From: Reclinomonas americana ATCC 50394
Lineage: Eukaryota
Length of the DNA stretch: 39,124 nucleotides
Direction of reading: 5' to 3'
Assembly: GCA_048213135.1 (NCBI GenBank)
Contig: PS015623.1
Location: 45,103 to 84,226 of the forward strand
The notes beneath the pieces are model-generated. The model was not told the DNA's origin. It searched no databases and saw only the letters and a list, made by a program, of their open reading frames with translations. A program made the translations under genes and the position numbers. This document shows positions 3,431 to 38,100 of this stretch, piece after piece (the stretch's first letter is position 1; each line of letters opens with the position of its first letter).

Positions 3431-3480
3431 TGAATGCTAACATGTCATTTACATTGATCCTTCTTCCTCCGCACTGTCCG

Positions 3481-6400
3481 TCAGCCACTGCCGCTGCCCG
3501 ACACGCCGCCCAGATGCTTGTGCGTGGACAACATGTCCTTGCGCGGATTCTGCTGGAGCGACATTTGCTGGAAAACTTGCTGTGCGTACGGCTTGTGCAG
3601 GAGGCCGGCCTCGCCCAGCCGTGTCACCAGCTTGTAGCGCGGATCCTTCAGCAGCTGCACCTCCGAGTAGCCCTTCAGCGGCTGGAAGGCCGTCGGTAAC
3701 TCGGTCGAGGGGTCCACCACAGTGCGGTCCGTCATGTTCGCAAACGCCGCCGTCGGCTGTAGCAGGCGCTCCGGANNNNNNNNNNNNNNNNNNNNNNNNN
3801 NNNNNNNNNNNNNNNNNNNNNNNNNNNNNNNNNNNNNNNNNNNNNNNNNNNNNNNNNNNNNNNNNNNNNNNNNNNNNNNNNNNNNNNNNNNNNNNNNNNN
3901 NNNNNNNNNNNNNNNNNNNNNNNNNNNNNNNNNNNNNNNNNNNNNNNNNNNNNNNNNNNNNNNNNNNNNNNNNNNNNNNNNNNNNNNNNNNNNNNNNNNN
4001 NNNNNNNNNNNNNNNNNNNNNNNNNNNNNNNNNNNNNNNNNNNNNNNNNNNNNNNNNNNNNNNNNNNNNNNNNNNNNNNNNNNNNNNNNNNNNNNNNNNN
4101 NNNNNNNNNNNNNNNNNNNNNNNNNNNNNNNNNNNNNNNNNNNNNNNNNNNNNNNNNNNNNNNNNNNNNNNNNNNNNNNNNNNNNNNNNNNNNNNNNNNN
4201 NNNNNNNNNNNNNNNNNNNNNNNNNNNNNNNNNNNNNNNNNNNNNNNNNNNNNNNNNNNNNNNNNNNNNNNNNNNNNNNNNNNNNNNNNNNNNNNNNNNN
4301 NNNNNNNNNNNNNNNNNNNNNNNNNNNNNNNNNNNNNNNNNNNNNNNNNNNNNNNNNNNNNNNNNNNNNCCTGCTGCTCCTGCTCACGCTTCTCACGCTC
4401 CATCCGCTCCGCCTCCAGCTCCGCCGCCCGTTTGACATCGCGTTCCTGCTGCCGCAGCTCGAATTGTTGCCGGGTGGTCTCGTAGCGCTGCTTCAACTCA
4501 CGCGTTGTCTCGCCGTGTCGGGCGCGCTCGGCTTCTGTCATGGCCGAGTCGTGCTCGAATCGCTCCAATAACTATGGAAATAAGCTGTGAGCTTACTCTC
4601 AAACACACACGCGTACCCTCATCACTCGCGCCGCAAACCTCGTTGAGTGCATGGCGCTGCTCGCGCAGCTCCTCCATCTCCACGGCAAACTCGTCGCGCA
4701 GACCCTTGAGCTTGCGGCGATTGTACTCGCACGCAGCGTGCCACGCCAGCATCTCCTCAATGGAGGCCTTGTTGTGCGACGGCATCTCCAACGACAGACG
4801 ATCGATGAAGCGCGCGCGGTCAAAGCGCCCCGTGGCGGCGAACTCGCGGCACACCTTTGTGAAGTGTGCCACGTCTTTCTCTGCACTCCATCGCTCCGGT
4901 CGCAACTGCGCCAGTGCCTGCCGCGTGGCCCGCACCGCCGGCTGCTCGTCGCCAGACATGCTCAACACGACCAGCATGCACGGAGTCTCCGAGAACACTG
5001 CTTGCTTGAACGCATCTGCACGGAAGCTCAGTACGCTGTGCGGGGAAGGGGGTAGAGAGGAGAGAAGGGAAACACGCACCTTGCTGGCCTTCACGCGGAG
5101 TCACCAATTGATCAATCGGCAGCTGCATGGGTGGTCTTTGCACACCGGCCGATGGCGGACGCTGCACTCCGCGAGCCGACGCCGGCCGTCCACCAGAGGC
5201 CGCCGACATGGGGCGTGCCGACAGTGGTGCATTACCCACAGCCGAGCCCGGTCGACTGGCGTTGGTGACGAGCGGGACGTTGAGTGCACTTGATGATCTC
5301 CCACAACACATGCACACTTGTACACACCTGCTGCGAGCCGAGGTTGGGCGCGCCTTCAGAATGACACGCGAGCCCTCCTGCAGCATTCGTGGTTGTGATC
5401 GCTGGGACTCCAGCACACCGTCGACCGTTGCGCTGCTCTCGGCCAGCTGCTCGTTGGCCTCCTGTGGAAGATCCAGCGCTGGCACCTCTACTGCAGCAGC
5501 AGCAGCAGCCAGGCCTTGCATATCGCCATCCTCGCTCTCCCCGTCATCGTCGGCAATGTCGTCGCTACCGACGACCGACAACTGCTGACTGTCTTCGTGC
5601 TCCACCGTCGACGATTCGCTGACACGCTTCTCCAGCGGTGGTGGCATAGCAGCCGCCGTGGTCTGTGTGACAAAGAACGATGGACCAGCATGCGAGGCAC
5701 CCGACTCCCGTCGCGACAGCGGCGGCCTGGCATTGCTGGCCGCCGATGCGACACCCGATCTCGACGGCGCAGGCGTCACGCACGTGGAGACGGCGGGTGT
5801 GGTGCTGGTCGAAGATGATGCAGTTGGCTGGAGGAGTGTGGAGGCTCTCCGTTGTGACATGACCTCCAGCGTCTCCGAGTGCAGCTGCTCGAGGCGCTGC
5901 GTCAGCCGACTCGGAATGCTGCAAGTGCGAGTCAACGAAAAGTGGGGCAAGAAAAACAGGCACCTTCTTCTGCCCCTACCTCGCCAAATCATCGTCCACT
6001 CGCTGCAACCAGTCCTCGACCTGGCTCTGCGTCATACCCTCAGCTCGTGCCACAGCCTGCGGATTCACGTGCTTGTAATGATGGTGTGTCCGCATGGTTC
6101 GGTGCGTCATGTGTGTTCTCCTCGAATGAATGCTCTCCCTGCAGGTACCACCACCACCAACAGTGAGCGAGGAGACTGTGTGTGTGCAAACACGCACGTG
6201 AGCAAGCACGACGCATGCGCAACAGATCGCCACCGTCGTCGCCCTCCAGCGCCGCTCGCTGCGCCTCCTCCTCGCTCTCCCTCTCCAGTTCGCGAACATT
6301 CGCCATGTGCTCCTCTATCTCGGCCATGACTCGCACTCCCTGCGCCGTCGTGTCCTCCTCCGCTTGCTCCAAATCGCCCTTCAGCTCCACGTACATGGCA

Positions 6401-7042
6401 CGCAGCGTGCCGGCCCGCTCGGCGGCATTAAAGTTGAGTGCCAGCATGCCCTGCGACGGAGGTGAGCCAACAGAGAAACAGGCATCAATAAGTACAAATT
6501 GCAGACTTGAGCACCTTCATGTCGTTGACTCGTTTCGCCCAGTCTGCGTGGTGATAAGCAGCTTGAGCGAAACGAGAGGAGAGAGAGAGGGAGACTGCGG
6601 GATGAAATGAACGCAACAAGTCGACATGGAGTACCGAGCGCCCTCTCTCCGCCCCTCCTCCTCTGCAAACTCACACGTGACGTCGTCCTCCATCGATCCC
6701 ATTATGGTGGCCAGCTCCAACTCCACGCGCTCCCTGCCGATCCAAGTAAGCAAATGTGTGATAGCAAAGGAACCACCACCAGCTGCAGTCGCACCTCTCC
6801 TCCTTCAGACGCGCATGCTCCATCAAATAGTCACGCTTGTGCCCGTCAATGCGCGACTTTTGCTTGTTGCCCTTGACCACCGACTTGAGCTGGTGCAACT
6901 ATACAAACGAGTGGAAGGATTGAGTCTGAAATAGCTGACAAAAAAAGTGACCTCGCACTCCCACCTTCTCCTCCAGTCGCTGCGAGCCTTGCTTTGACCG
7001 CTCCAGCAGCGCCATGGCCTTGTCCACATCGTGCCCGCCCAT
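3481..7042 (-). CDS. CCDC148: Coiled-coil domain-containing protein 148-like (>=9 introns; spans gap 3776-4369)
   Basis: The C-terminus GYSEVQLLKDPRYKLVTRLGEAGLLHKPYAQQVFQQMSLQQNPRKDMLST matches the recalled CCDC148 C-terminal motif (DPR...L.EAGL...YA...PRKDM.ST). A central W...HF...R.RFIDRL..EMPSH segment and E/R-rich coiled coils also fit. Confidence 0.75.
3776..4369. other. Assembly gap (N run)
   Basis: Ns in the sequence. Confidence 1.
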
Positions 7043-7420
7043 CAGTCGAGCGCGCTGACCATGGTGTGACACACTTCGAGCTGAGATGAATTGAAGACAC
7101 TGACTCGTGAGCACACACACACACACACACACTCACTCACTCTCTCTCACACACACCGTGCGTCTTCTCTCTTCTTCTTGCCTGTCTCTGTCTGTCTGTC
7201 TCTCTCGTCTTTCTGCTCCCGCGCAACTTGATTCGCCAGTGCTTGTCTGAGCACTGCCTGTGCGCTCACGCAAGTCGCGCACGGCTCTCAGTGCGCTCAT
7301 TCTTCAGAGAGAGCGAGCGGGCGGAGGTCAGAGTGTGTGAACGGCGGGACAGTTGCGCTCGCGTCTTCCCGCGCGCGCGATTCGGCTCCTTTCACATTTG
7401 TTAATCTCACATAAGCAGCA

Positions 7421-7996
7421 ATGGCCGGCGAGAAGTTGCGTCTCTGTCTGTGATGCTTATGCGATGTCCTTGTGTGCGCCTGTGGCGCTGTGCGTTCGCT
7501 CGTGTGCTGTGCGTGACATGTGCGCCGACATGTTTGCCAATGGCGGCCTCACGCTTGTCTCTTGACGCGCTGCAGGACTGTGTCGACGCGTGGAGCGGGT
7601 GCGGGCGTGTCGCTCAACTCAGCCAAGAAGAACTTCCTGTCGTTCTACTCGGGCGAAGGCGAGGACTCAATGGGCTTCAAAGTGTTGCGTCTCTCGCCAC
7701 ACACAGCGGACGCTCTCCCTCTCCGCACGCATGCACACACACGCACTCTATCCTCTGTTTCCGCACCCACTGCTCTTGTGTGTCTCGATGAGTGGCGAGC
7801 GTGTGGACGGGGGCGTGCGCGCCATTTTCCGACGCACATCCCCCACGCGCGTTGTCTCCCGCCAACTCATATTCTCTCTCTCCCCCTTGTTTCTCCCTTT
7901 GTGACTTTTAGGCCGCCGCAATTCGTGCTGATTGGCAGCATCATCTTTGTGGTGATTGTGTTCATCCTGCACATTCTCGGCAAGTTGGTCGGATAA
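7421..7996 (+). CDS. SEC61B: Sec61 translocon beta subunit; exons 7421-7434, 7576-7683, 7912-7996
   Basis: The spliced product is MAGEKTVSTRGAGAGVSLNSAKKNFLSFYSGEGEDSMGFKVPPQFVLIGSIIFVVIVFILHILGKLVG. It has the FY...DS.G.KV.P..VL..S..F...V..LHI.GK signature of Sec61beta. Both introns start GTTGCGT. Confidence 0.93.
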
Positions 7997-8124
7997 TCAT
8001 GGACTGCAGACGGGATTCGGCTCGCCTGTCGGCACGCGGGAATGAAGGCTGCGAGGCAGTGTTATAGACACCACCCTGTTTTGTGTTTCCTTGTTTTCTT
8101 CACATCTTACTTGGGTTCATCGCT

Positions 8125-10422: not shown

Positions 10423-10565
10423 GCAGACGACGACGACGGGAAGCGCGAGCGGGGCAAGAGGACGCCGAAAGACACTTCGCGGTTTTCCTTCTCAAATCAT
10501 TTCATTGCAAAACAAACAACAACACAACACAGAAGCTAGCTATGTAATACAAAGACAACGGGAGC

Positions 10566-13500
10566 TCACTGAATCTTGGGACGCAGGATGCCAGTGAATC
10601 TGCACAGCACAACACACAAATGAGTCGTCGGATCGTCCACCGTCCATGTCGCCGCATGGGGTGCACGCAACTTGTCCGGCAGCATCTCAAAGTAGCGGTC
10701 CATGGCCTCGCGGAAGCGCTTCTTGTACGACCGCGGATTCATGACGGTCGGCGCACCTTTGCCACCGCCAATGATACCACTGCTCTTCACAATGTGTTCC
10801 AGTTGCTTGTCCCACGTGTACTGGCGCAGGTAGTCTGCACGAAAAGGGCACACGTTGAGTTGCTTGCGAGCGAGCGCAGCGAGTGGACGAGCAGGTGGAA
10901 CGTAGCGCGCACCGATAATGCCGACCACCAGCTGCTGGCGCTTCTCATCGATGCCCACCAGCAACGAGTAGTCCATGACATTGACTTTGGAGAGGAAGAG
11001 GGTGTCGTTGAAGATGGATAGACTCATGAGCGCCTTGCTGGCCTCGTTCATGGCCAGCGGATTATCCTCGTAGATGACTGCACGCATCGACTCACAGTGA
11101 GCAGATGGAGCGGGAGCGCGCGCACACACATGCTCACGCACACTCCAGCATGTTCTCGTCGAGTTGCACGGCGTCGGACTTGGTCTGGTAGCGATTGCGC
11201 AACGAACCCTTGAGATCGAACGTCTGCACAACAGCAAAAGCACATGAGTTCCACGCTCGTACGCATCCCAACGACATTGTACATCACCTGTGCAATCTGC
11301 CGATCGTAGAACAGGTTCTCCATCACCACCAGGTACTTTTTCACGCTTCGACCGGCTGTCGCGTACTTGACTCTGTACAAGCCGAGGACCTTGACCAGCA
11401 CGGTCGGCAACTGCGCAGCACAACATACACGAGGTGTGAGTGCGTTGTACGTGCGAGCAGACGCAGGAATGCAGACGGAACTTGGTGGAAGAACGCCTTG
11501 GTGAGGTACTCAAAGTACGACAGGCCAAAGTCGAGGAACGACACGAGCTCCACACGCGACACGGACTTGATGACAAAGCGGTCATCTGCAACCTACGCGT
11601 AAGCAAAAAAAGGAAAAGAGAACACAGGCACAGTGAGTGGCATTTGCCGCACCCCATGTTTTCACAAATGTTGAGCCGGACTTGCCGCCGGTCGGCAGCC
11701 ATCTTGCGCATCGCAGGAGACTCTCCTCAAAGAGCACGTCACCACGGCTACAATCCCATCACGGACGACATGAGAAACGACGCACGACCGTAGCCAAGGG
11801 AATTCACAGCTACAACGCAACTGAATGTACTTGCGAAGGGCGGCAAACTGCAGCGGGAAATAGACGTGCACGGAGAAAGCGTCCTTCTTGGTGACGGGGT
11901 CCACCACGGCTGTGCGGGAAGCAGGGCATACCAATGGTAAGCAGGCGCAGAAAGCTACTCTCATTGTCGAACTACAGCGACACGCAACAGTGGCTAAACG
12001 GTGTCTTGTCCGGATTCAGCAACAGACTCTCCATGGCTGAGGGCACGCAGTGTTGAGACGGTCACACACACGAAATGAAGAAAACGGGACGAGTACAACG
12101 CAACTGACGTGATCGGCGGGGTGTGCCGCGTTCACTGGTTCCACTGTCCTCTCGTAGTCTCGAGAACTGCACGGGGGAGGCGGTGAGCTGCATGCACGGC
12201 GGTGTTTCACAACCCATATTTTCACGAACGTGAGCGTGTGAGCAATAAACGACGACGGTTCCTCGTGGTGCACCGGCACCAAGCCCAACAATCCCTCCGG
12301 CAAGTCCCAGTTGAACGACAGCTCCCTGTGAGACGAAGGTAGTTTGAGCAAGGTCACTAGCAGATAAAGTGCCACGTTGTAGCGACGCAACTGTGGGAGC
12401 GACACACTCGGGAACTTGATCTTTTTCAGCATGTGCGAGCGGCGTTTCATGTCTCGTTCGCGCTCGGCGGCTGCTGTGCGTGCGTTCGAAAGAGAGAACC
12501 CGTCGAGTGAGCAATCACAAACGCAGTCGCCGTCAAGTGAACAAGAGAATAACCAACCGAGACGTGCAGCCGCTCCACGAGCCGCACTGCCCGGCAGCGC
12601 TGTCGCTGACGGCACTGCACCAGTGGACACCGATCCGCTCTGCATCACAACCACCATCCTCGTCAGCACGCCGATACATGGCAAGCTAGCACACTCTCAC
12701 GTGGACGAACCATTCCGGAAACCGCAATCTCCACACTATCCAGCAGCGGCTCCGAAGCCACGTCGGGGAGCACCGGTGGCTGCGTATGAGAGCACGCATA
12801 AACATGTCAGCGTCAGAGCACACACACACTCGTGCAGCACACACAAACGCACATCCTCACGCGCGCCCTCCTGCAATCACACGAGCAATCAGTGAGAATG
12901 GGACATCGCAGAACACGATTCCTCCATTTCTTCGTCAACAAACCTCAAAGTCGGCATACGCAGAAATGGTCATGGCGGCAGCACCCTCGGATTCATCGGC
13001 CAGTCCTTCCCGTTCACCAAACCTGTCACTCTGCAACGACGCCAAGTAGTCCTGCATGGAGATGGCCGACTCGCCACCAATCTCCAGCTTGATTTGCACG
13101 CCAGCCGACAGGGCATTCTCAATCATCGTGGGCGACGTGGACAGGATCACCGGGTCGCCGGCATTCAACGTCAGCTGAACGAACGAGTGGTTCCAGTGAT
13201 GAATGTACACGCCCAAAAGTCTGCAACCACACGAGGTCAGCGGAGGCAACGATGATCACGCGGTGTGCGCACCGCACACGAACAAACACACAGAGCTCAC
13301 CTCAACAGTCGACCCATCGACATGAGGTCGTTGCCTTGCGAGCGCGCTTGCCGAATGATGGCGAGCATGTCCACAGTGTGCGACGGGATGAGGAGCTTCA
13401 GCGCCTCGAGTGTGTCCTTGCAGTGCTCGTACGGCTCAGACGCACTCATACGCTCCACCATGGCGTACACGCGCGACAAGATCTGTTCGCAGAAGAAGAG

Positions 13501-15381
13501 AAGTGTCAACAAACGCAACACAGTCGTACGAGCTTCGACGAACTGTACACACACACACATACACACACACACACACCTGCTCGGCAATGATGAACAGCGA
13601 ATTCCACTTCTCCTCACGCTTGTGATGGTGCGTTCGCATGTTGTAGTCGAGAACTGCCGGTGGCACAATGACGCGGCACAGCGACACCTCCTCGTACTCG
13701 AACCGAGCAATCTGCAAGTACATACACCGCGAGTGAGACGTGCGCACATGGAACCTCCGTTTCTCTCGTCCACAGCACGCAACAATGTTGCCCCTGGCAA
13801 AATGGCGTGTCACGTGCCGATGCGCCACCTTGTTCTCGGCCCATGTGCGGCAGTAGACGGTGGTGTTGTAGAAGAGGTTCTCCAAAAACTTGCCAAACGA
13901 ATACTGCAGGCTGCGATCGGAGAGTTTGTTGACTGGCGTCACTTGACGGCCTGTGTCGCGGCACGTGCCCCAAGTCACAATGTCGCGACCATCCGTCAGC
14001 TTCTTCTGCTCTCACAACACACGAAAGTGAGTCGATATCCATCCACAACATGAGCTCGCGTGGCACGAACCGCAGAACGGCGCACTGAGATCGACACTCG
14101 ACCCGATCCGTGTGCGTACGACTTGGTGTGCTGACAAATCTCGTCGAGCGTCTCCTCGTCAAAGCACTTGTGGTTCAAGTAGGTCTCCAACGTCAAGTCG
14201 TTCTCCGAGTAATAAGCAATCTCAATGACTTCCGGACACTCGTCCAGCTCCAGTCGATCGCGCAACTCGCTGTGGCGCACAAGGAAATAAAGCGATGAGT
14301 GTTAAGCACAACGATGCAACACAAGTAAAAAACACACACCTTCCGTCCGACACTGCGCGTTGTCGGTACAAGACGACCAGTTGCTGGTGATGGAACACCG
14401 ACGGCATGTACACTCGGAAGCCGGCTGTTGAACGCGGATACAGATCCACATTGTCGTTGGCCGACAGGAACGGCGAGGGCAAGAAGAGGCCTTTGGTGGG
14501 AATCGGAATGCGAATGTTTGGCGAAATGCTCATCAAATAGTCCGTCGGCACCTCGCCTGATGCGTGCACACACACAGAAGCAAAATCAGCGACGCGACAC
14601 GCACACGTGCTGTTGTAATGGAGACACACACACTCACCCATTTCGAGTGTGACCTCGCGATCAGTAATGGCCTCAAACGACGGGATTCGCGTGTGCACCG
14701 AAGCGGCCGGACTGCGAGCCGACGACTGCGAACCCTGCCCGTCGTCGTCCTCTGCCGTGTCGCCGCCAAACGCAGTGTCATCGGCGAGCGAGTCATGCGA
14801 GCCTTGTCGCACCAACTCCGCCGACACCTCCTCCACCGCCTGCGACACCAACGGCACGACGACCGAGTCGCGACCATCGGCTTTGCCGTCGGCCTCCACA
14901 TCGTCGAGCTAATGGCACGATAGTCATTCCGTGTGAGTCGTAGGGGGGGAGCCGCCAATACAGAAGTGCACACACCGCATTCGATCCGAACACGAAAAGC
15001 GGGACGGCACTGTTCTCGTAAAAGAGATACTCGGTCTCCAGCGACAGGTTGTAGGCCGCGTAAATTGCAAACTGCATGCAGTGCGGCAGTCAGTCCACAT
15101 CTGCACGACGAGCAGCTTGGTGGACGAGACGCAACGCGGAGCAGACGCTTGACAGCACGCAGTGTCTCGTGGTCCGCGCCACGCAGGTTGATGGTGCACC
15201 CGAGATCGGATGGGCAGCCTGCACGCATCAGTCGATAAGTAAATGCGTAAGCGCATTAATACGACGGCAGCCGAGAACGCACCATCAAAGTACAGTAGCG
15301 ACTTGCGGCCCCACTCGCCGGATTCGACCTTGAGACGGAACTCACTGCAAGTGCCCAGTTGCGGATTGCGCAAGGCATCTG

Positions 15382-15418
<37 letters not shown>

Positions 15419-18400: not shown

Positions 18401-18582
18401 GAAGCTGTGTGCACAATGAGTGAGCGAGTGTGTGTGCGCGAGTGTGTGAGAGAGAGAGACGGAGGATACCCTTTGAGACGAGACAGCAAGCCGCCCTTCT
18501 TCTGTTGCTTCTGTTTGCGCTCCTCGCGTGCAATCAGGTCAGAGAAGTCGGTGAGACCGCCGTTATCGCCGGCGTCGGCCAT
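10566..18582 (-). CDS. FAB1: 1-phosphatidylinositol-3-phosphate 5-kinase FAB1/PIKfyve (~41 introns)
   Basis: FYVE domain (YWMPDESARNCYECHAQFSVFKRKHHCRVCGQIFCGKCS), CCT/TCP1-like domain (KRMRSHIRNPRILLL, KPDIVIVEKSVSRIAQ), the SFGKFLE region, and PIPK domain motifs GGKSGS, DDRFVIK, MENLF, FDLKGS, DYSLLVG, GIIDYLRQYTWDKQLE. Confidence 0.96.
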
Positions 18583-21273: not shown

Positions 21274-21316
21274 CTCTGTCACACTCTGTCTCTCTCTCTA
21301 TCTGATCCACCCACAG

Positions 21317-24300: not shown

Positions 24301-27300
24301 CGCACGCGAACCGTGTGCTCACAGTGCGATAGCTGCGCGAGATTCACGAGCAGCTGACTGCCAGTCGTCTGGCACACCACCGTGAGCGACTGGTGCTGCA
24401 GCAGGCGTTGGAGGACAAGGAGCATGAAGCCGACGAGCTGAGACATGAGGTGCGCAAAGCGCGCGAGTTTGGCGAGGTGAAGATCAAGATTCTGGAGGAC
24501 TCGGTGGCCAAGCTCGCCAAGCGCGGTGACGCCGAGCGTCGACTGGCCGAGCGAAATGACGAGATGTTTAGGTGTGGGTTGTGTGTGTGTGTTGTGAGAA
24601 AAAAGCAGACAACTCGTGAGTGCGAGTGTCGTGCTCATTGTCGTGTGTCTGTCTATAGGCTTGCACTCTCGGAGGCGCAACACAAGCGCGAGGCTCAGGA
24701 GCAACGCGTTCGTGCCTCCAAATTGGACGACATGCTCGGGGAGCGGAATCGACGGATCGCAGATCTGGAGACACAGCTCATCCAGCAGTCGGGCACCTCG
24801 TTGCCGGTATGTGTGTGTCTCTGAACGCGCAGGGGTTTCCATGCTCGATCTCGCTAATTTGTGGTCATCATAGCCTGTAATCGTGGACTCGCACGATGGC
24901 ATCTCGCAGTCTGGCAAAGGCAGCAAACGCAACGGCTCGGCCACGCCGCAGGTCTTCACCCTTTGTTGTTGTTCTTGTTGCTGTTGCTTTGCACTTTGTG
25001 GCTCATTGTCGCATACAATCAGCAGCAACATCAGCAGCAGCAGCAGGAGCAACAACAGACGCAGATCATCTCGACGCTGTCGGCGCAAGTGCAGTCGCAG
25101 AAGGAAGAGATTCGACGACTGCGGGAGGAGTTGCAGGAGCGGCCGTTGCCGCCACTGCCGCCAGTGTCAACAATGGTGGCACCGGTGGCGGATTCGGGAG
25201 CCCAAATGCGCAGCCTGTCGCTGGAGATGGAGTGCAACTCGTATCGCGAAAAGCTGCGTTTGTACGAAGACGAGGCCGCGCAGACGGCACAGCGCATGGC
25301 CACTCTGCAGAAGCAAGTGGGGCGGCAAAAGGAGGAGATGCATCGCAAGTACATGGCCGAGATGAGCGAGCACATTGCTGAGATCCACGGTCTGCGCCAG
25401 TCGCTGTCGTCGGCACAGCAGTACAGCGAGCAGGCAAGTCCACCTCACCCTGTGTGCCGAGTGATCGTCTCTCACAAAATCAGCCGCAGGTTCAATTGGA
25501 GCTGAATCGAGTGCGCACCGACAAGCTCTGCCTGTCCGATCAGTTGTCGCAGCGGGATCAGTTGGTGCACTCGCTGAAAGAGGAGACTGCACGACTGGCG
25601 GCACTGGCCGACGAAAGGTTAGCGTTTCGTTGTGTCTGCATTGACTCGTCGCCTCTGGTCGCTCACACGACGACAAAGGTGCCAACGAGCCGACGCTGAT
25701 GCACGGCGCGCGGCAGCTGAGTCCGACAGACTGGCGCACGAAGTCGAAGAGAAGAAAGTGCAGTTGCAGGTGATGGCCGAGAGCCTGCAGTCGCTGGAGA
25801 ATCGCAGCACCTTGCGCATGGATCATCACGGCTCGGCGTTGCGTGTCTGCCGTGGTCTCTCTGCGAATCACACATCACCTCACCCTTGACTCGCAGCGAT
25901 GGGCTGAGTGATGCCGCGAAGGAGCGCGTCTTGGTGCTGACGGCCAAGTTGCAGAGTCTCATCGCCAGCGACTTTGTGCAACAGCGTCGTGTCGCAGAGC
26001 TCACCAACCGAGTGGCGGAACTGTCGCGCGCCCCGCCGCCGAGTGGCGGTGCCGATTTGCATGCGGTCCAGCTGATCTCGCAGTCGCAGGCGGAGAACGA
26101 AGTGTTGCGCAAGCAAGTCAGCATGTTGAAGGGCGAGGTTCGCAGTCTGCAGGAGCAGGTCGAGGAGACCGAGCGCGAGCGGCAACAGACACGCGAGGCG
26201 CTCGAGAGCTTGCGCGCCGATGCCGTGAGGTACTGTGGGAGTTTGACCAGGAGGAGAATGCGTACACGCAAGAAGCTCACCATGTGTCGTACAGGGTGGC
26301 CAGCGAGCGTCGTGCGTGCGAGGAGCGGCTGCGAGCGCAGCGGCAAGAGTTTGCCGAGAGCCTCCAACGGCACCGCTCGGAGCTCAACTCCAAACTGCGC
26401 ACGGCCCACGAACGTATGGTGGCCCGCGAGCGAGAAGTACTGCTGTGGGTCGACCAGCACACTGCGCATGCGAGTGACAGCGACGGCAACGGTGCGCATG
26501 GTGGTGATGTGAGTCCCACACGGCGTGCAGGGGGTCGCCAGGGTCGCTCGCACAGTGCAAGCGCCGTACATCGTCGGAGTCGGTCGGCAGATGGTCGTAC
26601 GGCTACGTTGGCTAGTGGCGATGTTGGTGGCGGTGACGAAGCACCGGTCGGTGATGCACATGTCAAGCTGTGGACCGCCATTCGCAGCACGCGGCAGGTG
26701 CGTGTCGTCGACTGTTGCATGGCACTTATTCCATGATTGCCGTTCTAACTGTGTGCGGCTCGCCAGCTGCTGATGGATGTCACAGCGCGGTTGACAGTCC
26801 TGTCAAGGAACGACGATGCTGGTGCACCGGCGCTGGTACGTTGCCGACTTTGGATGAAGTAAGTCGGCGCGACGCTGCGTTTGACTCACACACACGCACG
26901 TCGCAGGAGAGTCTCGAGGACCTCAAATCGTACATGCGGTCAATATGTGGCAAGCTCGAATTGGCACTGATTCAACACACGCTGAGGTGAGATCTCCTTC
27001 AATCTTTGTTGACATGCAGACACTGGCTAACGTGCTCGGCAGTGAGCGCTTCCTCGAGCCGCGAATCACCGAACTTAATAATGAGTTGACCGAGCGCGAT
27101 ACCGAGGTGCAAATGTGGCGCGACAGATGTACAGTAGCCGAGCGCAGCACCACCACATGCGAGGTGAGTTTATTCTCACCCCCTTGTTGATTCTTTTTCT
27201 CTCACTCTTCGCCCGTGGCGCACCGCAGGCCGAGTATCGTACCATGCTGCAGTCGCACACCGATCATGTGGCATTGGAGAATGGACTGTTCCGCGGTCAA

Positions 27301-30300
27301 ATCAAGTCGCTCATGGATGAATTGCAGCGCACCAATGAGCAAGCACTGCGTGTCCACGAAGAGCACATTCGGTGCGCGGCAGCCATGTGTTCTGTGCACT
27401 GCGGTGTCATTCGACGCTCACGCTTGCATGTTGCGCACAGACTGACGCACGCCAACACGCTGCTGACGGTGCGCATTCGGGAGTTGGAGATTCATCTCGG
27501 CAAGGTGCAGAGCGAGGCCATGGAGCACGGGCACCAGGTAAACAGCGACGCATTGCAGCAGGCACGGAGATTCTGGGAGACGGAGCTGGACTCGCTAAAG
27601 ACCTACTTTGAGGAGGAGATTCTCAAGGTGTGTCGCACATGGGCCAGCTTTCGTGAGCGTCGCTCACTCCCTTTATTCACACAGACGGTGCTGGTGGAGT
27701 CGAGGCAACCGGTTCTGTCATTAACGCGGGAACTGTGGTCGCAAAAGATTGTCGAAAGCAACCTGCTGTTGGAGCTGGAACTGGCGCAGAAGCGACGGGA
27801 TGCGGTGACGGTGCAGTTGGAATCGCAGGCCAGGGTGAACCGATCGTTGTTGGATCGCCTGCAAGAGGCCGAGGTGCTGTCGAGCACTTCGCCGACTGCG
27901 GCGTCGGTCACGGGTTCGGATAGCACGGTGTTTGGACAGTCGCTCGCCGCGTCGCTGTCACGCAAGACAGAACAGTTGGTGGCCATGGAGAAGGAGCTGC
28001 AGGAAGAGCGGCTGCTGGTGAGACGGTTGGAGAGTGATTTGCACATGTTGCAAACGCGCGCCGAGCGAGACCTGCATGCTGCGCGCACGACGGCTCAGTT
28101 GGAGACTTCGGGAAAGCACACAGAGTGGGAGAGGCGTCTCAGTACTGTGGAGGCGGAAAACGAGCGTCTGCATGCGGAGATTCTCAGATTACACGAGGAG
28201 CACGGGCACGAACTCATCGCGGTGCGGAAGCGCCTGAAGGAGGCGTACGAGAAGGTTCGTTATGCATTCGTGCGGTGTGTGTGTGTGTGTGTGTGTGCGG
28301 AAGGGCTCGTCTTCCTGCTCACTGGCATGTGTGCAGGAGGTGCTGGAGCTGGTGGACAAGTCGCGGCACATGAAGGTGGAGCACGACGAGGTGGTGCGGC
28401 AGTTGGAGGAGGTCAATGCGGCAGAGTCGTCGCGTCAGGCCGCATCGCAACAGCGAAAGGCATCATCGACGGCGGCAGCAAGTCCCGACGCCGTCAAGCA
28501 GCAGTGTTTGATCCGGCTGCGAGCCGACGATTTGGTCGCCGAGATTGAGACACGTGATCGCATTATTGAGGATTTGCAAAAGACAGTGGAACGACTGGCC
28601 AGTGTCGACCACGACGAGGAGGGCGGACGGGGGAGGAGCACCAGTCCCACTGGATTCATGTCGCTGACAGTGTCATCGCGTGGCAAGCAGCGTCGGTGAG
28701 TGAGGGTATGTGAGAGTGCCTGCGTTGGATGGCGATGCTGACTGCAGCTTCTGCCCCCTGTAGTGTGCATGGTCGCCCTGTGGAGGGTGCTGCGTCAGCG
28801 ACTGCCACAGTACCGCCAGCCGGTGGTGGAACTGGTGCCGCAGGTCCAACAACCGCTGCTGCCGCCCTCTCGCGTCACGTCTCGCAGCTCACTCGCGAGC
28901 TCGTGCGTGCCAAGGTTGCGTACAACTGAACCAAGAGCACGTCCGTTTCCGAATGATTGCTGACCGACGCCTGTGTGGTGTCGCAGACTGAACGACAAGA
29001 GGCCATTTCACGCATGCGCGTGGCGCTGCGAGCCGAGCTGGAAGTGCGTGAGCGCCTCTCGGCATTACGACTGCAATCCATTAGCCGTAGTGGCACGACC
29101 GCGGAAGCGCAAAGTGGTCCTCGGCGGCGCGACGAGTTGGCCGTGCGAAATGCGGAGCTCGAAGCAGAGGTGAACCACTTGCGTGGCATGCTGGCGCGTG
29201 CGCAGCTGCAAGTGACGCTTGGCGACGACGGGCATGTGGCCTCGCAGATGGTTCCGTACTCTGCATGTCTCACCAGTGTTGACTGTTGTACGTGCACTGA
29301 CGCTTGCTGGTGCCCTCCAGCGCGCGAATGGCGACACGGCCTCTCAGTCGGTGCTGGATGCGGTGCGTTGTAACTGCGCTGCGCGTTTGAGCTCACACAA
29401 AGCTCACTCGCCCTCGTAATGATGCAGCACTTTGTGTTGCAACACGGAGCACTTCCGTCGGCCGCACCGGCGCAGACGGGGGCAGGCGTTGTGCGCGACC
29501 ACAGTGAGGTGGACACGGTGTTGACTCGCATCGAGCACTCGCTATTGTCGCTGAGCAGCGCACTGGCGATCCGCCAACACGGCGCCGACGATGACGCTGC
29601 CTCTGCGGCTGCGAATGACGATGCGGGACCGGCAGATGAGGTCCGACCGGCCGAGGTGGCTCGCATTCGCAAGTTGCGTTCACGCACATGTTTTATCGCG
29701 TGGAGGGCGCCTTACCGATGTTTTTCATTTGGAGCAGGCTCTTTGATGACTGCATGCAGACATACATTAGCGAGTTGCACCGTCGACTGCGAGTGGCTGC
29801 CGACGTGTCGCAACACGCTGGAATCTCATTACCCAGGTTCCGAACTCACTACGCGTTTCTGCGCTCTTTCTTCTGTTCCTCTGAACCTCCTGAACAGCAC
29901 CGCCAGCGATCTGGTGCAGGAGCGTCGTGCCGTGTGGGAGGGCATGTTGGAACTCACACAGCGCATGTCGTCGCACGCCGGTTCGCTGATCTCCAAGGCA
30001 CAAGCGCTTCGCAAGCATCTTCGCCCCGAAGATGCGTCAGCACGCGACGCACTCGCCGACATGTCGGGAGTCGAGTCGATGGCACAACTGTTGCAGCAAG
30101 AGGTGCAGTCTTGCGGTCGGTGCCGGTTTTTTTGTCGTGGCACTCATGCAACGTTGCACTGCAGCTGCAAGACGTGGCCAAGATGCAAGGCTATCAGGTC
30201 GGCTTGTGCAATGTAGACGCGCAATTTGGTGGTGGTGCTGCGTCGGCCGCAGCATCAGATCGGTGAGTGCCTGTGTGTTGTTTGTCGCCTTCTTTTTCCA

Positions 30301-33300
30301 ATTGTGGGTGACCGGGCCATGCCATGTGCTGCAGCGAGCCGGTGGTGTTGACGTTGAAACAGCAAGTCGTCGACTTGCAGTCGGAGCTGAGTCGCCGCGG
30401 TGAGGAGACTGCACTGGATCAGCTGCGTCAGCGCGTCGAGCGTGAGAGTCTGGAAGAGCGCGTACGCCTTCTCGCACAAGCACAAGAGGCAAGTGTGTGT
30501 GTCTGTCTCAGAAGCTATGCTGTGTGACCGCTTCCGCTCATTGATTGGTGCGTGCCTCACAGCAACTTCGACAACGCTACGATGCGCTGCGTGAGAAGCT
30601 ACGCGACGAACGGCGCCAGCACAGTGAGAGTCGCAAGCAGGCCGACAAGGTGCAGCGGCAGCTGGTCGAGACGCAGTCGGCAAAGGACGATGCGGAGCGT
30701 CGACTCCAACAAGCACGCACCACCACTCGTCGTGAGTCCTCCTCGGCGGCGGCGGCACGCACTGATGGTGAGTCAGGCGAGTATGAGTGCGCGCGCGTCT
30801 CCATGCGGCATGCTGACGGGTGTCTGCAGGCGACGGTGAGCGTGACAGACGCTTGCGTGAGGCGGAGGCGCAAGTGGCTGCGCAGAGACAACGCGCGGAT
30901 CAGGTGCAGGAGGAGTTGCGATCGGAGGTCGAACGGCTGCGTCACGAGCTGGAGAGTGTGCGGGTGCGTTGTCGACGGCTATACCCTCCCACTCACGTGT
31001 TTTCGATGACCCAGACTAATGTGCGAGTGTGCTTTGCAGGAGCAACATCAGACCAAGTGCGACGAGCTGGCGCAGTGCACGCAAGAGCGCGATTCGGCAC
31101 GCCGTCAACTCGGCGAATCGCTGGCTGCACTCACCAGCAAGGCGCCCTCTGTGCCACCATCACCGGCGCCGGTGCCACAGGTCCATGACGATGCGTTGCG
31201 GCATTGGCGGGAGCGCTGCCGGTTGTTGGAGAGTGATGTGGAGCGAGCGAGGGAGGAGGCAGCGGAGAAGGATGACGAGGTGCAGAAGCTCACCGATCTG
31301 TGTGCTCGAGCCGACTCGGAGATTTCACAAATGCGCGGCGAGATGCGACGGGCTATGGAGGAGGTGGCGTGCTGTGTTTGCGCTCTGCGGGGGAAAAACG
31401 CCTTCCTCATTGTCCGTTCTGTGTGTGCAGCATGCCTCCATGCTGACGGATTACCGACAGCAACTCGAGGATGCGACCGCCGAGTGCGAGCGTTTGCGGG
31501 AACAGCAGCATCGACATGGTGGTGAGCGCGGTTACGTGCGTCACATTCAAGCACAGCTGGAGCAACAACAGGAGCGATTCAGACAGCAGCTGGAGGATCA
31601 ACGCCGTTTGTTGGAGGAGCACGCGCAGCCAGTGGTGCACGCAGAACGCGAGCTGTCGCCAAATGGATCGGTGAGGCTGTCAGCGTCGTCGCTCTCTTCA
31701 CAACTACCGTGACTGACTGGGCGCTGTGCAGTTGGCCGACGTACAGGAGGAGTTTGCGGCATATCGTAGGGCTCACGATGCCATGGCGGAGATGTACGAA
31801 GCCGAGATCGAACAGCTGCGCGAGCAGATGAACGTGGTGTGTTCGCACAGAAACACGAGCGTGCTGCATCTGTCCTCGAGTCTCACTCCGTTATCAGCTG
31901 CTGCGTGAGCGACGAGCTGCCGGCGCCCCTATTGTGGCTCGTGTGGCCCGCCCAGTGGGACGCAAGTTTGCACCCCTGCATTCGCGCAAGCGGCATGCGC
32001 AGGTCGCTGTCATTCCCGAAGGCGAGGAATCTTCATTCCCGTCCATTTCCAGTCTGTCGCCATCGCAACCGTCGTCGTCGTCGTCAAATGCGTCGGCGGC
32101 GGCCATGGTTCCGCCGCTGGCCTTGCCAAGGCACGAATCGGCAGCTACCACGACTGGTTTCGCCTCCGATGTTGCGGACAGCAGGCTGTTGCAGTTGGTG
32201 TGTGTGTGATACGCTGCTTACACATTTTTGTCGCAGTCGGCATACAAGGACTGGATGATTGAGCGGCTAAAGGAGGACGTGACCGAGTTGCGCAAGCAAC
32301 TGCGCAAGCTCCAACCAAAGGCAAGCCTTGTGTGCCGAGCGTTTGAGGTTGCGTGTAATGTCGCTTATGTGTGTGCGATGTGTGTGTGTGTGTGCAGCGG
32401 AAGAAGGGTGCAGCGGCTGTACGCATTGCCGGAGCCAGCGAGGGTGGCGTGCCAGCCTACGCACCGTTCCAGTGGCGCACCGAGAAGCGCAACCTGCAGA
32501 TCGAGTTGGAGATTGCCGCCGACCGACTGCGAGAGAGTGAAAACCGCGTGCTGGAGCACAAGCGGACGATTGACACGCTGAATCGGCGCATCCGTGAGCT
32601 GATGCGAGACCTCACCGCCGCCAGTCGGTGAGATCTCTCTCTCTTCTCTCTTCACGTGTGCTGGTGAAGAAGGAGAAATGTCTGACCAACGCTGCAGGGA
32701 ACGCGAGGCCGCTGCGGCTGCGAGCTCACGTCAGCAGCAGTTGCGCAAGAGCCAGCGATTGCACACTCATGTCGTCGTTGTATAATTGTCTCAACTCATG
32801 ATGTTCTGTTGGCAGACTGGATGACCTCGCCGCACGCACGAAACAGCAACGAGAGGAGGTGCAACGAAAGAATCGACAACTCAGCGCCATGAAGCACTCG
32901 GTGGAGGACATGGTGAGGATTGGGCATGCAAGAAAGCTTTGCCTTGGTTGGCTCGTTTTTCTCACGCCGTGGTCTCCTGCAGGAGGAGAAGAGTGCATTG
33001 CTGCAGCAGAAGCTCATGGTGGCGGAGGAGCGCAACAAGCGGCTCGAGGGCGACATCCTGCGCAAGGTTACGCCTCGGTGTGCTCGCTCGTGCTGCTGAT
33101 AGTGCATGTCGCCCTCATCACTTTCGTGCAGGATAATTTGATACGCGAACTGCGCGCCCGCGAGGAGCGTGCACACGGCGATGTGGATGCCGCGCAGCAG
33201 CAGGCCCAGAAACTGAGGTGAGCCGTTTCTATTTACTCCCGGCCTCCCCGTGCTTGCGTCACTCACGTGCACGGGGGTGGTCTTGTTTTTTCCTTTGTAG

Positions 33301-34316: not shown

Positions 34317-34397
34317 TGATGATGATAACGAATGACGAATGACTATAATAATGAATGAATGAGCTCTAATCGCAGTTGTGTACATGCTGCAGCATCC

Positions 34398-34808
34398 TCA
34401 CACACGCTCAGTGCGCACCGAGAGCAAGTGCTTGACCTGTGCCTGCAAAGTGAGCGCGACAATGACAACGACACACACGCAGTCAGTCACACAAAAGAGA
34501 GCAGCGTGCCTTGCTCAGTTTGCCAATGATCTCGCGTGTCGCCGGCAACACCCTCTCCTGCTGCAACTTGTGCAGACGCAGCGATCGCACGGTTGACCGC
34601 ACGGCCTCCGTGTTGCCAATGGGACTGCATGAGAGAGAAGAGAGAGAAAGAGAAGAAGGGAGGGTGAGAAGGGAAGAGAGTTGCAAGAGAGAGAGAGAGA
34701 GAGTAAGTGTGTGTGTGTGAGAGAGAGAGGAGGGTGAGGGAGAGTGTGTGTGCGTGTGTGTGTGGAGAGAGAGAAGAAGATCGAGGAAGAAGAAGAGAGG
34801 GTGAGGGA

Positions 34809-34844
<36 letters not shown>

Positions 34845-34904
34845 AGAGAGTGGAGAGTGGAGAGTGTGCGTGTGCATTATGCGCGTCTTTCACTTTCCCC
34901 CTTA

Positions 34905-34963
<59 letters not shown>

Positions 34964-35009
34964 CTCACCTCTTGACCAGCTTCACAAAGAGGATCGTGCC
35001 ACCGCTCAT
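34398..35009 (-). CDS. MRPL30: Mitochondrial (bacterial-type) ribosomal protein uL30; exons 35009-34969, 34624-34510, 34436-34398
   Basis: The spliced product is MSGGTILFVKLVKSPIGNTEAVRSTVRSLRLHKLQQERVLPATREIIGKLSKVKHLLSVRTERV, matching the uL30 pattern (VKLVKSPIG...TVRSL.L.KL.Q......T..I.G...KVKHLL.V). The second intron is GC-AG. Confidence 0.88.
34630..34960. repeat. Compound (GA)n/(GT)n/(CA)n microsatellite block inside uL30 intron 1
   Basis: Seen directly; includes a long (CA)n at ~34906-34960 and (GT)n at ~34813-34842. Confidence 0.9.
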
Positions 35010-35108
35010 CGCCAACACCAAAATCAACAACAAGTCGATGTCGACCGTCGCGCGCGCGCGTCGTCCTGTCACTCCTGTCCACGCTCTCGTGCGCGCTCGC
35101 TCACCTGC
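35010..35108. promoter_or_regulatory. Putative bidirectional promoter between uL30 and the F-box/LRR gene (99 bp between ATGs), containing (CG)6
   Basis: Head-to-head ATGs at 35009(-) and 35109(+); CGCGCGCGCGCG at 35049-35060. Confidence 0.5.
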
Positions 35109-38100
35109 ATGAGCGTCTCCTTTGTCAACGCCGAGCGCCATGGCGGTGCCACCTTCTCCCCCTGGCGGCGATTCAGCGCGCCCGGCTACCGCGCACTGCA
35201 ATACACCGCCAGCAACACGCACGCCAGCTCGGCTGTCTCGTCGATCCTGGCCGGGCAGGTGAGGGTGGTGGCCGTGGAGAATGGCGATGGTGGAGGGCAG
35301 CAGGAGCAGGGAGGAGAGGGATCGGCGGGACTGGTGCTTCGGCATGGTCGCGCGTGGGAGGAGCGCGATGATGGGTGGTTGACTGGCGATTGTTGCGTCT
35401 GTGTGTCACTGCGCTGCCACTGTGTGTTGCTCACGTGTGTGTGTGAGATCATCAGTGCCGGAGGATGTTACGTGCTGGCGCTGTGTGTTCAGTGTGTTCG
35501 GACTCGGGATTTGATTGCTGTTTGTTGGTGCGAGCAGACGTGGCGCCACATCTTCTCGTTCTTGGATGTGACTGACTATCGACGCAACTGCTTTGTGTGC
35601 TCGAAGGTGTGGCTGGCTGTCTCTGTCTCTCGCTTTCCACCCTCACCTCTCTCTTCTCATCTCATGTTGCAGTGGTGTCGACTCTATCGGGAAAATGTTG
35701 GTGGTGCCGTGTTGCCGCTGGAGACGCGACAGGCGCGAGACTTTTTGCAGAGGTTCCCCGGACTTTGTCAGATCATTGGTGAGACGCACGTGTGGTTTGT
35801 TTATTGTTTGTTGTCTCATTGTGGCTGGCAGTCGGGGAGGGCACATCGACTGCCACACTGGCGGTGCTGATTGAGTACTTGAATGCGCCCAAGTGTGTGG
35901 TGGAGAGCCTCGTACTCCCGTCGAATGGTGATGTGCCTTTTGCTTTTCCCCTTCTGCTTCTCTCTTTCTGTCTCTCCGATGCTGACATACTGGAAAAAGT
36001 GCTGGAGCGAGTCGACATGCTGCGAGTGGTCATAGGTGGCAACGGCAGTGCGCCGAATCTGTGCCGATTGCAGCTGAGTGGACCCAGTTGCGTCTTCGAC
36101 TTGCTTTCCGCGAGTGCGTGTGTGCGTGAGCGCGCTGACCTGAGTGCGTCTGACAGTGGCACCGAGCGACATGGTGCGTTTCCCTCGCGACAGGATTCGA
36201 AGTCTGCGCGGTCTGTCGCTCTCTTTTCTCGCTGTGACTTCTCAGTTCTCACTCTCTCTCTCTGATAGTGGTCAGCGGCCCGCCGGCGCCGTACTTCCTC
36301 GAGGCGCCCGCATTCTACGAGCAGCTGTCGCTGGTGGATGCCCACCCCGCGAGTGTGCGAATGCTAAAGGATCACCTTCAGCTGCGGTCGCTGGAGCTGG
36401 TGATTGGTGCGTCATCGCGTCAGAATCTCCTCTCTCTCTCTCTCTCTCTTACCCACTGTCTCTCACCGAAAATTAAATCGCCCAGGTCGAGGACCGGCTG
36501 CGCAGGTCATGCTGCTGTCGGAGCTGCGCGAACTGATCGCCGCCGACGCCTTTCCGAATCTCGAGATATTGCTCGGTGAGTGTGCGATCAACAAATGCAC
36601 AATCACCACTTGCCGTCGTCTCTTTCTGACAAGAACAGTTGTTGCAGTGCGCGCAAATAGTGCATACGGCTACTCCGCTTCGGAAGATGTTTCGTTGGAC
36701 GCTGCACTGGTGGCATTCAGTCAGGTGCTGCCACGGCTTCGGCGCCTCAAGGTTCGCCGCGATGTGCGCCGTCCTGCTGCTCTTTCCCCCTATCTGCGAC
36801 GCTCACTCGTGCCACAGGTCTTGCAATTGGACGGTGTGCTCAGCCTGCCCGTGGTGCAAATGGGTATGGAGAATGGCCTCAGTCGTGGACTGGCGGCACT
36901 CGGTGCGGCGATTGCGGCCGGCAACACCATTCACTCCTTGTCGCTGATGGTGAGTTGCGACAACAGTGTGTGATGGGAATCGACTGTTGAAAATGGACCT
37001 GACTGTCCACCTTGTGCATGCAGTGCAACGGACTCACCACACTGGCGTCCTTCTTTGAGGGCATGCACGGACCCCACTGCCCGCTTCGTGAGCTTGCCCT
37101 CTCGCAGGTGCCGTCTGTGAGATAAGAAATGAGAGATGTATCATCGCGTGCTCATCTTTTGCTGTTGTGCTTTACAGAACACACTGGGTGACGCGGCCGT
37201 CGAGCACCTCGCGAAATACTCCGAGTCGCACATTGGTGGCATCAGGCGCATCGGTCTTGGTTGGAATCGTCTGACCAACGCTTCCGTACCGCATCTGGCC
37301 ACGCTCTTGCGACAAGAGTGGTTGGAGACGTTGGATCTGGAGCGTGCGTACGAGCCGCGGGATGGCGCCTGCCTTTTCCTGCCTTGTGTAGCTTACCTGC
37401 AGCATGCATGCGCAGGAAATCTGTTGCAAGATATCTCTCCACTGGCCGAGGCCATGGCAGTGGCACCACTCGAGTCCTACCTCTGTCGCTTGGAGTTGGG
37501 AGGCAATCTAGTTGGTGGCGACGACGCCATGCGTCTGGTGGAGGCCGCTCGTCAACGCCCAGCCCTCGGCTATCTAGGTACGTGTTTGTCGATTTTCAAA
37601 ACGGCGACAAGACGGCTTGGTCTCACATGAGTGTGTGTGTGTGTGCGTGGCAGGACTCACTGGTAACTGCATTCCGTTTGACATTGTGCAGCAGCTGGTA
37701 GCCGGTGGTCGGCCAGTAGAGTGTGGCAGTTGAGTCGTTTGGGAGGAGAAGGTATTCTCTTTTGTGGTTGTTGACCTCGGTCCGTGCAGGTCAGCGAGTC
37801 TACGTGGACTGGGGTGCCATTCGACGTGAGATCGAGCCTCCAGCACCGCCGACCAAAGTGTTTACATTGTCGGCCACCACAGAGTGGAAGCCGCCGACGG
37901 ATCGTGTCGACTGCCCGCCTCCGCCGGATAACTCGGTGTTTCTGAAAAACATTGCAGCGCCCGTGGACTCTGCGGTGCCAGGTGTGTTTCAGTTCAGCAT
38001 CAGACCCTTTCTCTTTCTCTCTCTCACTCTGTCGATCACCAGGCGGCAAGCCGTCTCTGTACATGTCGCCACCATCTGCCATGAGACCACCGCTGCAAAT

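Follow-up and report, generated by a model that had tools for sequence, protein, structure and literature searches.

An abundant class of 5' splice sites beginning GTTGCGT in a 39-kb stretch of Reclinomonas americana DNA, possibly read in a register shifted by one base

The closest described counterparts of the introns reported here are human 5' splice sites that pair with U1 small nuclear RNA (snRNA) in a shifted register. In that register, attributed to Roca and Krainer (2009) in the relevant passages of Tan et al. (2016; PMC4856993), every base pair with U1 is displaced by one position, the G at intron position +1 pairs in the slot of the exonic G at -1, and the cut is still made at the GU. 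According to the same passages, the validated non-canonical registers together account for 3,119 of 201,541 human donors (1.5%), and the shifted one is termed atypical. Here we describe introns beginning with GTTGCGT in a 39,124-base stretch of DNA (hereafter the window) from Reclinomonas americana ATCC 50394 (contig PS015623.1 of assembly GCA_048213135.1, positions 45,103 to 84,226). The pairing scheme of the human sites, as those passages give it, fits the exon-side statistics and pair counts found here. However, such sites are there described as a rare minority, whereas in the window one motif opens 16% of 132 introns and its class 24%. The human shifted core is AAGU and that of the window GCGU, and the U1 sequence used for the comparison is an assumed one.

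Several other systems share individual traits with these introns. U12-type introns have an RTATCCTT donor, and their branch site, which resembles TCCTTAAC, lies near the 3' end. Like the present class, they form a second class of introns marked by an extended 5' motif that hardly varies, but their donor is unrelated, and in the window the branch site is neither distinct nor tighter and lies equally far from the 3' end. Ostreococcus reportedly has strict GTGCG(T/C) donors and ACTGAC branch sites. The ordinary introns of the window, with a GC-rich GTGCGT core and a CTGAC/CTCAC branch motif, are similar in this respect, although Ostreococcus is intron-poor, unlike the densely interrupted genes described here. 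In humans the U12-type share is 0.36%, as stated in a passage of PMC4856993, far below the share of the class here. The same source cites Roca et al. (2012) for donors with a bulge at +2/+3; going by its account these have an extra U between the GU and the conserved downstream bases, which makes the donor one base longer, as here. The bulge nevertheless keeps the pair with G at -1, a base found in 3 of 32 members of the present class, and is rarer in humans. In Caenorhabditis elegans, mutations in SNRP-27 redirect splicing from one 5' splice site to another close by (PMC6140464). This reportedly shows that the exact position of the cut is decided once U1 has bound and is able to slide, but the sites concerned are mutant or cryptic ones and not a natural genome-wide class. 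Amorphochlora, going by the corresponding passage of PMC12730881, is a different organism with 27% GC. In the literature searched, GTTGCGT was not found as a splice motif, its literal matches being primers and unrelated text, and none of the papers listed by the searches reports an abundant shifted donor class in any organism.

The original prediction for this stretch listed 20 introns beginning exactly GTTGCGT and nine named variants, with the conserved G-T at +6/+7 rather than at +5/+6. All 20 coordinates carry the heptamer, all nine variants carry the sequences given for them, and the displaced G-T marks a real and abundant second donor class. GTTGCGT occurs 27 times on the two strands of the window, against 9.74 +/- 3.42 in dinucleotide-preserving shuffles (0 of 100 shuffles reach 27). 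Chance was rejected as an explanation. Twenty-one copies are predicted donors, namely the 20 listed and one at 32348 (+). The others are exonic in sense orientation (21972, +), intronic (13519, -), antisense to plus-strand genes (24039, 24933 and 35588, all -) or in a region of ambiguous strand (2558, -). Each of the 20 listed donors is followed, 50-230 bases on, by a CTNAY branch-like motif and CAG or TAG. The exonic copy at 21972-21978 (+), which encodes E-L-R in a coiled-coil gene, is used as a donor by no model, and no branch-like motif lies downstream of it. The heptamer alone would thus be insufficient to make a donor.

Introns were predicted with our own generalised hidden Markov gene finder, which trains itself for codon use, acceptor, branch motif and intron length. 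In the blind model the donor was scored solely as GT, or as GC with a penalty; in the second pass the gene finder was rerun with a self-trained two-class donor mixture as the donor score. The blind, second-pass and final intron sets were all counted beyond position 4,369, and the region 1-3775, in which the two strands yield overlapping gene models with comparable scores, was excluded from all counts. GTTGCGT was the top donor 7-mer in the first run of the blind model (13 of 137 introns), and separate blind runs on the genes for ESF1 and Sec61beta added the sites 19001, 20758 and 7684. In all, the blind model recovered 15 of the 20 listed sites plus the new one at 32348 (+), and the second pass 19 of 20 plus 32348, the exception being 16786 (-). 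A heptamer frequency no higher than expected from independent positions had been named as a ground for dropping the prediction; counted on the window, GTTGCGT was again the top donor 7-mer in the blind set (129 introns, 125 with GT) and was seen there 16 times against 0.30 expected under positional independence (p = 5e-23), and 20 times against 0.47 in the second pass. Clustering of the window donors with a product-multinomial mixture from random starts gave a Bayesian information criterion of 3996.8 for two classes, against 4029.1 for one and 4055.3 for three. The two classes found without supervision were.aG/GTG.Gt (77%) and ..a/GTTGCGT (23%), the slash marking the cut.

In the final set of 132 introns, 21 begin exactly GTTGCGT (15.9%, confidence interval 10-23%), and 32 (24%, 17-32%) belong to a broad class defined as GTTGC.., or GTT with G-T at +6/+7, in agreement with the 15-22% originally estimated. 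Members of the class are spread over six genes. Retention of 15 of the 21 exact introns would cause a frameshift or an in-frame stop. The other six (10600-10671, 12326-12391, 13712-13783, 16730-16786 and 16839-16904 on the minus strand, 7684-7911 on the plus strand) are multiples of three and stop-free; retaining them would yield in-frame insertions and not a truncated protein. The observation of an abundant GTTGCGT donor class is thereby confirmed at the level of predicted introns, and most of these sites are very probably real donors cut before the GTT.

The position of the cut was examined in the PIKfyve gene, for which every in-frame GT/GC-AG combination within 15 bases, plus retention, was scored. 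A profile hidden Markov model (HMM) of Fab1/PIKfyve was built from 40 of 120 homologues (92 of the 120 were 1,500-2,000 residues long; the first 18 and a random 22 were taken). The spliced protein aligns to it with no gap and with full posterior across 15135, 13783 and 11481; at 11821 one residue is inserted. Aligned pairwise with L001, an independent locus from a metagenome, the protein shows no gap at any of these four junctions. For these four sites the alignments show cleavage before the GTT in the predicted transcript. The borders could in principle be mis-placed, with the exon ending in GTT and a GC-AG intron starting at GCGT, or with other nearby sites in use, so that the class would be a splicing artefact. 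A GC does lie 3 nucleotides (nt) downstream of every GTTGCGT, always compatible with the frame, and it is the sole systematic alternative donor. Its use gains 2.2 bits at 12104 and 0.9 bits at 12391, both in poorly conserved stretches, but loses 6.6, 4.3, 6.6, 1.8 and 1.7 bits at 15135, 13783, 11988, 11821 and 10671, respectively. At 11481, where the donor is GTTCCGT and the border is exact by homology, no GC donor is possible 3 nt downstream and the next best alternative costs 7.9 bits. Moreover, an invariant exonic GTT in all three phases would be odd, and GCGTNN is unlike the donors of this organism. We regard such an artefact as very unlikely.

The junctions highlighted in the original prediction fared differently. 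In PIKfyve, splicing restores LLR/FAIYAAY and FFHQ/LPTVL without a gap, and PDK/FTG weakly, since retention of the intron at 10671 costs only 0.6 bits. For GFKV/PP of Sec61beta, the blind model finds the intron and the downstream exon is in register with chains in PDB; the upstream exon alone found no PDB match. For SKT/RVDKYGR of ESF1, the blind model and the stop encountered on retention agree with the proposed splice. The search with ESF1 exons gave a single weak homologue match, which is too divergent to settle this junction (19001) or those at 20145 and 20758.

The class differs from ordinary donors in its core and on the exon side, and both features go beyond the earlier description of it. 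After GTT the bases are GCGT in 20 cases, GCGC in 3, GCAT in 2 and CCGT in 2, with single occurrences of others and none of GTGT, whereas the ordinary-register core is GTGT in 17 cases, GCGT in 16 and then GAGT in 8. The original description, that most of these donors are one of the ordinary ones with an extra T, stands for the displaced G-T register. It does not extend to any donor, the core being nearly always GCGT and GTGT being found 0 times against 17. In the blind set, T at +3 goes together with G-T at +6/+7 (19/26 versus 6/39, p = 4.5e-6). G at -1 is present in 3 of 32 class members against 78 of 96 ordinary donors (p = 3e-13), in 2 of 21 exact GTTGCGT against 9 of 16 GTGCGT donors (p = 0.003), and in 2/16 against 31/41 in the blind set (p = 2e-5); in the class it falls below even the exon background of 0.33 (p = 0.002). 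A is found at -1 in 15 of 32 class members against a background of 0.22 (p = 0.0015), and at -2 in 48 of 96 ordinary donors. An exon-side profile shifted by one base describes the class better than the same-register profile or the background, with likelihoods of -122.5, -179.5 and -133.5 in the second-pass set and of -91.7, -114.9 and -95.3 in the blind set. We consider the loss of G at -1 well established and the agreement with the shifted profile moderate. Aligned from the right, ordinary donors read A-G-G-T-G-C-G-T and those of the class A-G-T-T-G-C-G-T; a single base differs, and the cut moves with the GT. Ordinary donors themselves prefer G at +3 (40/53) and C (23) or T (22 of 53) at +4, where A is rare (7), and these preferences are opposite to those for best pairing with the canonical U1 5' end.

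We are slightly inclined to believe that the introns beginning GUUGCGU, about one-sixth of the total, and the GUU(G/C)C(G)U class, about one quarter, are read by a U1-type mechanism acting at the same site as in ordinary introns. The U1 small nuclear ribonucleoprotein, or an equivalent reader, would bind an identical eight-base site in both classes, A-G-x-U-G-C-G-U. With G at x, the cut would be made at the GU of x-U, giving the ordinary aG/GUGCGU. With U at x, the only GU would lie one base upstream and the cut would move there, giving a/GUUGCGU. The first intron G would then take the slot normally held by the last exon G, and the later catalytic steps (U6, U5, Prp8) would ensure that cleavage occurs at the GU. 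If the U1 5' end is taken to be canonical, which it may not be in this organism, the class makes on average 6.66 pairs in the shifted register versus 4.16 in the canonical one, and ordinary donors 4.67 versus 7.28. For the shifted register as the mechanism we see the case as evenly balanced; what we infer here is U1 as the reader, the shifted pairing and the ability of U6 to cope with an extra base.

The original prediction offered two options, a spliceosome that routinely reads a bulged donor or variant U1/U6 snRNAs serving a second intron class. It was right about an abundant second class. In the bulged register, U1 and later U6 would pair normally at -1, +1 and +2, one of the two U residues at +2/+3 would be flipped out and pairing would resume at GCGU. 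The heptamer can indeed be written as GTGCGT plus one T. The association between T at +3 and the G-T at +6/+7 speaks for such a bulge, and bulged +2/+3 registers have been validated in human cells according to the passages of PMC4856993 cited above. The U6 stage must accommodate the extra base under any model. However, pairing of U1 with position -1 is preserved in a bulge, which predicts G at -1 to be as frequent as in ordinary donors or more so, whereas it is nearly lost (3/32) and below background. A bulge also leaves unexplained why the GTGT core, found in 17 ordinary donors, never takes the extra T. With G depleted and A over-represented at -1, a one-base shift of U1 fits better, and we consider the bulged register rather unlikely.

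The shifted register has its own difficulties, and the following points weigh against the reading that we prefer. The predicted shifted duplex with a canonical U1 reaches only -1.5 kcal/mol, whereas the ordinary consensus gives -8.2; with G at -1 the shifted duplex would strengthen to -6.9 kcal/mol, yet this base is avoided. The near-absolute G-C at +4/+5, whose C mismatches canonical U1, is left unexplained by a shift. In the blind set the shifted profile beats the background by 3.6 bits only, and a simple loss of exon-side constraint may be an alternative to it. Seven of the 21 exact sites are supported by signals and reading frame alone: five of them appear only when the donor is scored, 16786 is never used by the models, and 12391 is neutral for the frame. 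Junctions were judged by protein homology for PIKfyve and Sec61beta and by continuity of the reading frame elsewhere, all within one 39-kb window with seven genes.

Since the duplex is weak and the helpful G at -1 is avoided, a non-canonical reader suits the data better than plain thermodynamics. This could be a dedicated snRNA, i.e. a U1 paralogue or another reader fully complementary to a/GUUGCGU, the main U1 serving aG/GUGCGU. The motif is nearly invariant (21 of 32 exact), its core is far stricter than that of ordinary donors, and ordinary donors, too, mismatch canonical U1 with their G at +3 and their C or T at +4. A single base separates ACGCAACU from ACGCACCU, the sequences complementary to the two consensus sites, so that one U1 paralogue with a single change could serve the class. 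Nevertheless, the branch site and 3' end are common to both classes, and at most the first recognition step would differ. To our knowledge, the 5' end of U1 is almost universally conserved, which also counts against a dedicated snRNA. The Rfam scan of the window gave no match. On balance we judge this possibility improbable. A broader proposal would be that two parallel 5' splice-site codes operate on one spliceosome, the second, in one-sixth to one quarter of the introns, offsetting register and cut by one base and perhaps using its own U1 paralogue (complement ACGCAACU against ACGCACCU). This is speculative and, we think, equally improbable. If true, this would provide the first case of a natural organism that uncouples the U1 register from the site of cleavage on a genome scale. 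In human genes, shifted and bulged donors are rare exceptions that have been investigated site by site. An organism with one such motif at the head of a sixth of its introns would offer a natural system for studying how the cut is fixed after U1 leaves, how U6 tolerates an extra base and whether snRNA paralogues can divide their labour. In practice, gene finders trained on one donor matrix would mis-splice about one quarter of the introns of this genome, and several introns of the class were mis-placed by our own donor-blind model.

Apart from the donor, the class resembles the ordinary introns closely. All 32 members start with GT and end with AG, and C precedes the final AG in 22 of 25 strict class members versus 46 of 55 ordinary introns. 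The branch motif CTCAC/CTGAC (also CTCAT) is common to both classes. Median distances from branch site to 3' end are 20 nt in ordinary introns versus 23 nt in the class (p = 0.06), and median intron lengths are 68 and 71 nt (p = 0.48, no class difference). Class introns fall in all three phases (8, 8 and 9 introns). They are, as judged from these signals, genuine major-type (U2-type) GT-AG spliceosomal introns. A separate minor-type spliceosome is unlikely because branch site, 3' end and length are common to both classes, and a U12-type reading was rejected on the donor GTTGCGT and on the branch motif, which is that of ordinary introns. The identical 7-mer in many introns and the very high intron density would suit a recently copied family of mobile introns sharing the same start. 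When trimmed introns were compared, however, class-class pairs made up 29 of 469 similar pairs (6.2%) versus 6.0% expected, so that similarity follows class sizes, and the similar pairs are (GT)n repeats. Introner-like mobile introns were rejected on this basis, and we find such an origin hardly credible.

Some evidence on intron turnover comes from a relative, represented by three short open reading frames (ORFs) P0179, P0242 and P0256, with 74-89% protein identity to the window at 10748-14196 (-). P0256 runs gap-free across introns 13576 and 13300 and P0242 across 14070, and these other junctions of the PIKfyve model are thereby confirmed. Either the relative lacks introns 14070, 13576 and 13300, or its ORFs derive from transcripts. 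Where introns 13783 and 10912 lie here, the relative has introns too, and their donors start differently. At the 13783 border P0242 ends the orthologous exon with ...FAKGQM, against ...FARGNI here, and then reads V-S-R. An intron beginning GTTGCGT would read V-A, so the intron of the relative must start differently, and a GTGAGT-type donor is possible. A border that is kept while the donor type changes points to turnover inside the intron. This single case, a translated read-through, argues for such turnover rather than for border sliding.

The introns of the class are collected in Table 1. The intron at 16786 (-) is in frame and stop-free, and the gene finder reads through it. For the intron at 36087 the blind model placed the donor at GTGGACC, 9 nt further upstream, and used the same acceptor.

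Table 1. Predicted introns of the GTTGCGT class, exact sites first and variants below (blind, found by the blind model; second pass, found when the donor was scored)
Positions	Strand	Donor	Length (nt)	Location	Evidence
6544..6617	-	GTTGCGT	74	Coiled-coil gene, phase 1	Blind and second pass; length not a multiple of 3
7435..7575	+	GTTGCGT	141	Sec61beta, after MAGE(K)	Second pass only; in-frame stop if retained
7684..7911	+	GTTGCGT	228	Sec61beta, GFKV/PPQF	Blind; downstream exon aligns to PDB Sec61beta residues 70-93
10600..10671	-	GTTGCGT	72	Last PIKfyve intron, PDK/FTG	Blind; HMM aligns PDKF to PDkW, domain end
11748..11821	-	GTTGCGT	74	PIKfyve, KYIH/RGD	Blind; gap-free against L001; one-residue insert against HMM
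11910..11988	-	GTTGCGT	79	PIKfyve	Blind; stop if retained; donor 3 nt downstream -6.6 bits
12037..12104	-	GTTGCGT	68	PIKfyve	Blind; frameshift if retained; homology indecisive, alternative +2.2 bits
12326..12391	-	GTTGCGT	66	PIKfyve, unaligned linker	Blind; reading frame open if retained; signals only
13712..13783	-	GTTGCGT	72	PIKfyve, ARGNI/IARFEYEE	Blind; gap-free against HMM and L001; alternative -4.3 bits; P0242 diverges exactly here
15072..15135	-	GTTGCGT	64	PIKfyve, KRLLR/FAIYAAYNL	Blind; gap-free against HMM, full posterior; sole alternative -6.6 bits; gap-free against L001
16730..16786	-	GTTGCGT	57	PIKfyve linker, candidate	In neither model; TGCTGAT branch-like site, GTGCAG end; least certain of 21
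16839..16904	-	GTTGCGT	66	PIKfyve linker	Blind; non-conserved region
17951..18017	-	GTTGCGT	67	5' part of PIKfyve	Second pass only; frameshift if retained
19001..19071	+	GTTGCGT	71	ESF1, SKT/RVDKYGR	Blind; stop if retained; length-variable region in single homologue
20758..20828	+	GTTGCGT	71	ESF1	Blind; stop if retained
25838..25896	+	GTTGCGT	59	Giant coiled-coil gene	Blind; stop if retained
28915..28986	+	GTTGCGT	72	Giant coiled-coil gene	Blind; stop if retained; one of two exact sites with G at -1
29673..29737	+	GTTGCGT	65	Giant coiled-coil gene	Blind; frameshift if retained
32348..32397	+	GTTGCGT	50		Newly found (absent from earlier list); blind and second pass; frameshift if retained
35392..35455	+	GTTGCGT	64	Leucine-rich-repeat-like gene	Second pass only; frameshift if retained
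36087..36156	+	GTTGCGT	70	Leucine-rich-repeat-like gene	Second pass only
6139..6223	-	GTTGCGC	85		Second pass only
7352..7418	+	GTTGCGC	67	Upstream of Sec61beta start codon, possible intron of the 5' untranslated region	Second pass only; uncertain
11411..11481	-	GTTCCGT	71	PIKfyve, FFHQ/LPTVL	Blind; gap-free against HMM, full posterior
17067..17144	-	GTTTTGT	78		Second pass only
19812..19880	+	GTTGCAT	69	ESF1	Blind; stop if retained
20145..20204	+	GTTGCAT	60	ESF1	Blind; borders uncertain, single homologue shows two-residue excess
29251..29320	+	GTTCCGT	70		Blind
32171..32236	+	GTTGCGG	66		Blind; stop if retained
32740..32815	+	GTTGCGC	76		Blind; stop if retained
35467..35537	+	GTTACGT	71		Second pass only; stop if retained
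37729..37789	+	GTTGAGT	61		Second pass only; stop if retained

The window has about 58% GC and three runs of N. The PIKfyve/Fab1 gene lies on the minus strand from about 18,200 to 10,566, with FYVE and PIP5K domains, and the ESF1 gene on the plus strand at 18,682-21,188, with a NUC153 domain (Pfam, single exons in both cases). A small Sec61beta gene is located at 7,421-7,996, and its final exon aligns with solved Sec61beta chains in PDB. A giant coiled-coil gene at 21,302-34,596 (+) has about 51 exons and about 3,300 residues and is rich in E, R, Q and L. A second coiled-coil-like gene is found on the minus strand at 4,371-7,300, and a repeat-rich, leucine-rich-repeat-like gene at 34,660-38,925. 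Neither coiled-coil gene nor the repeat-rich gene has a family match; for the giant gene this is the Pfam result on the exons tested. The nearest named homologues of PIKfyve, from chytrids, Glomeromycota and plants, are 44-53% identical to it, and none of 80 metagenome loci compared with it exceeds 69% even in its best segment (L076, which has 43% GC and belongs to a different organism). In the excluded region 1-3775, no exon with a family match was found; it contains one GTTGCGT (2558, -), and a GTTGCGC at 2988 is taken as a donor by the plus-strand model.

Intron density is extreme: the 132 introns of the final set, whose median length is 68 nt, interrupt 22.9 kb of coding sequence, or 5.8 per kb over 4371-38925, and PIKfyve alone has about 40 introns within 7.6 kb. 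Microsatellites of the (GT)n or (CT)n type occur in many of the introns, for instance 13483-13576 (-), 15379-15469 (-) and 32348-32397 (+). These repeats open all frames, and the blind model consequently translated an intron as VCVCVYVCV.

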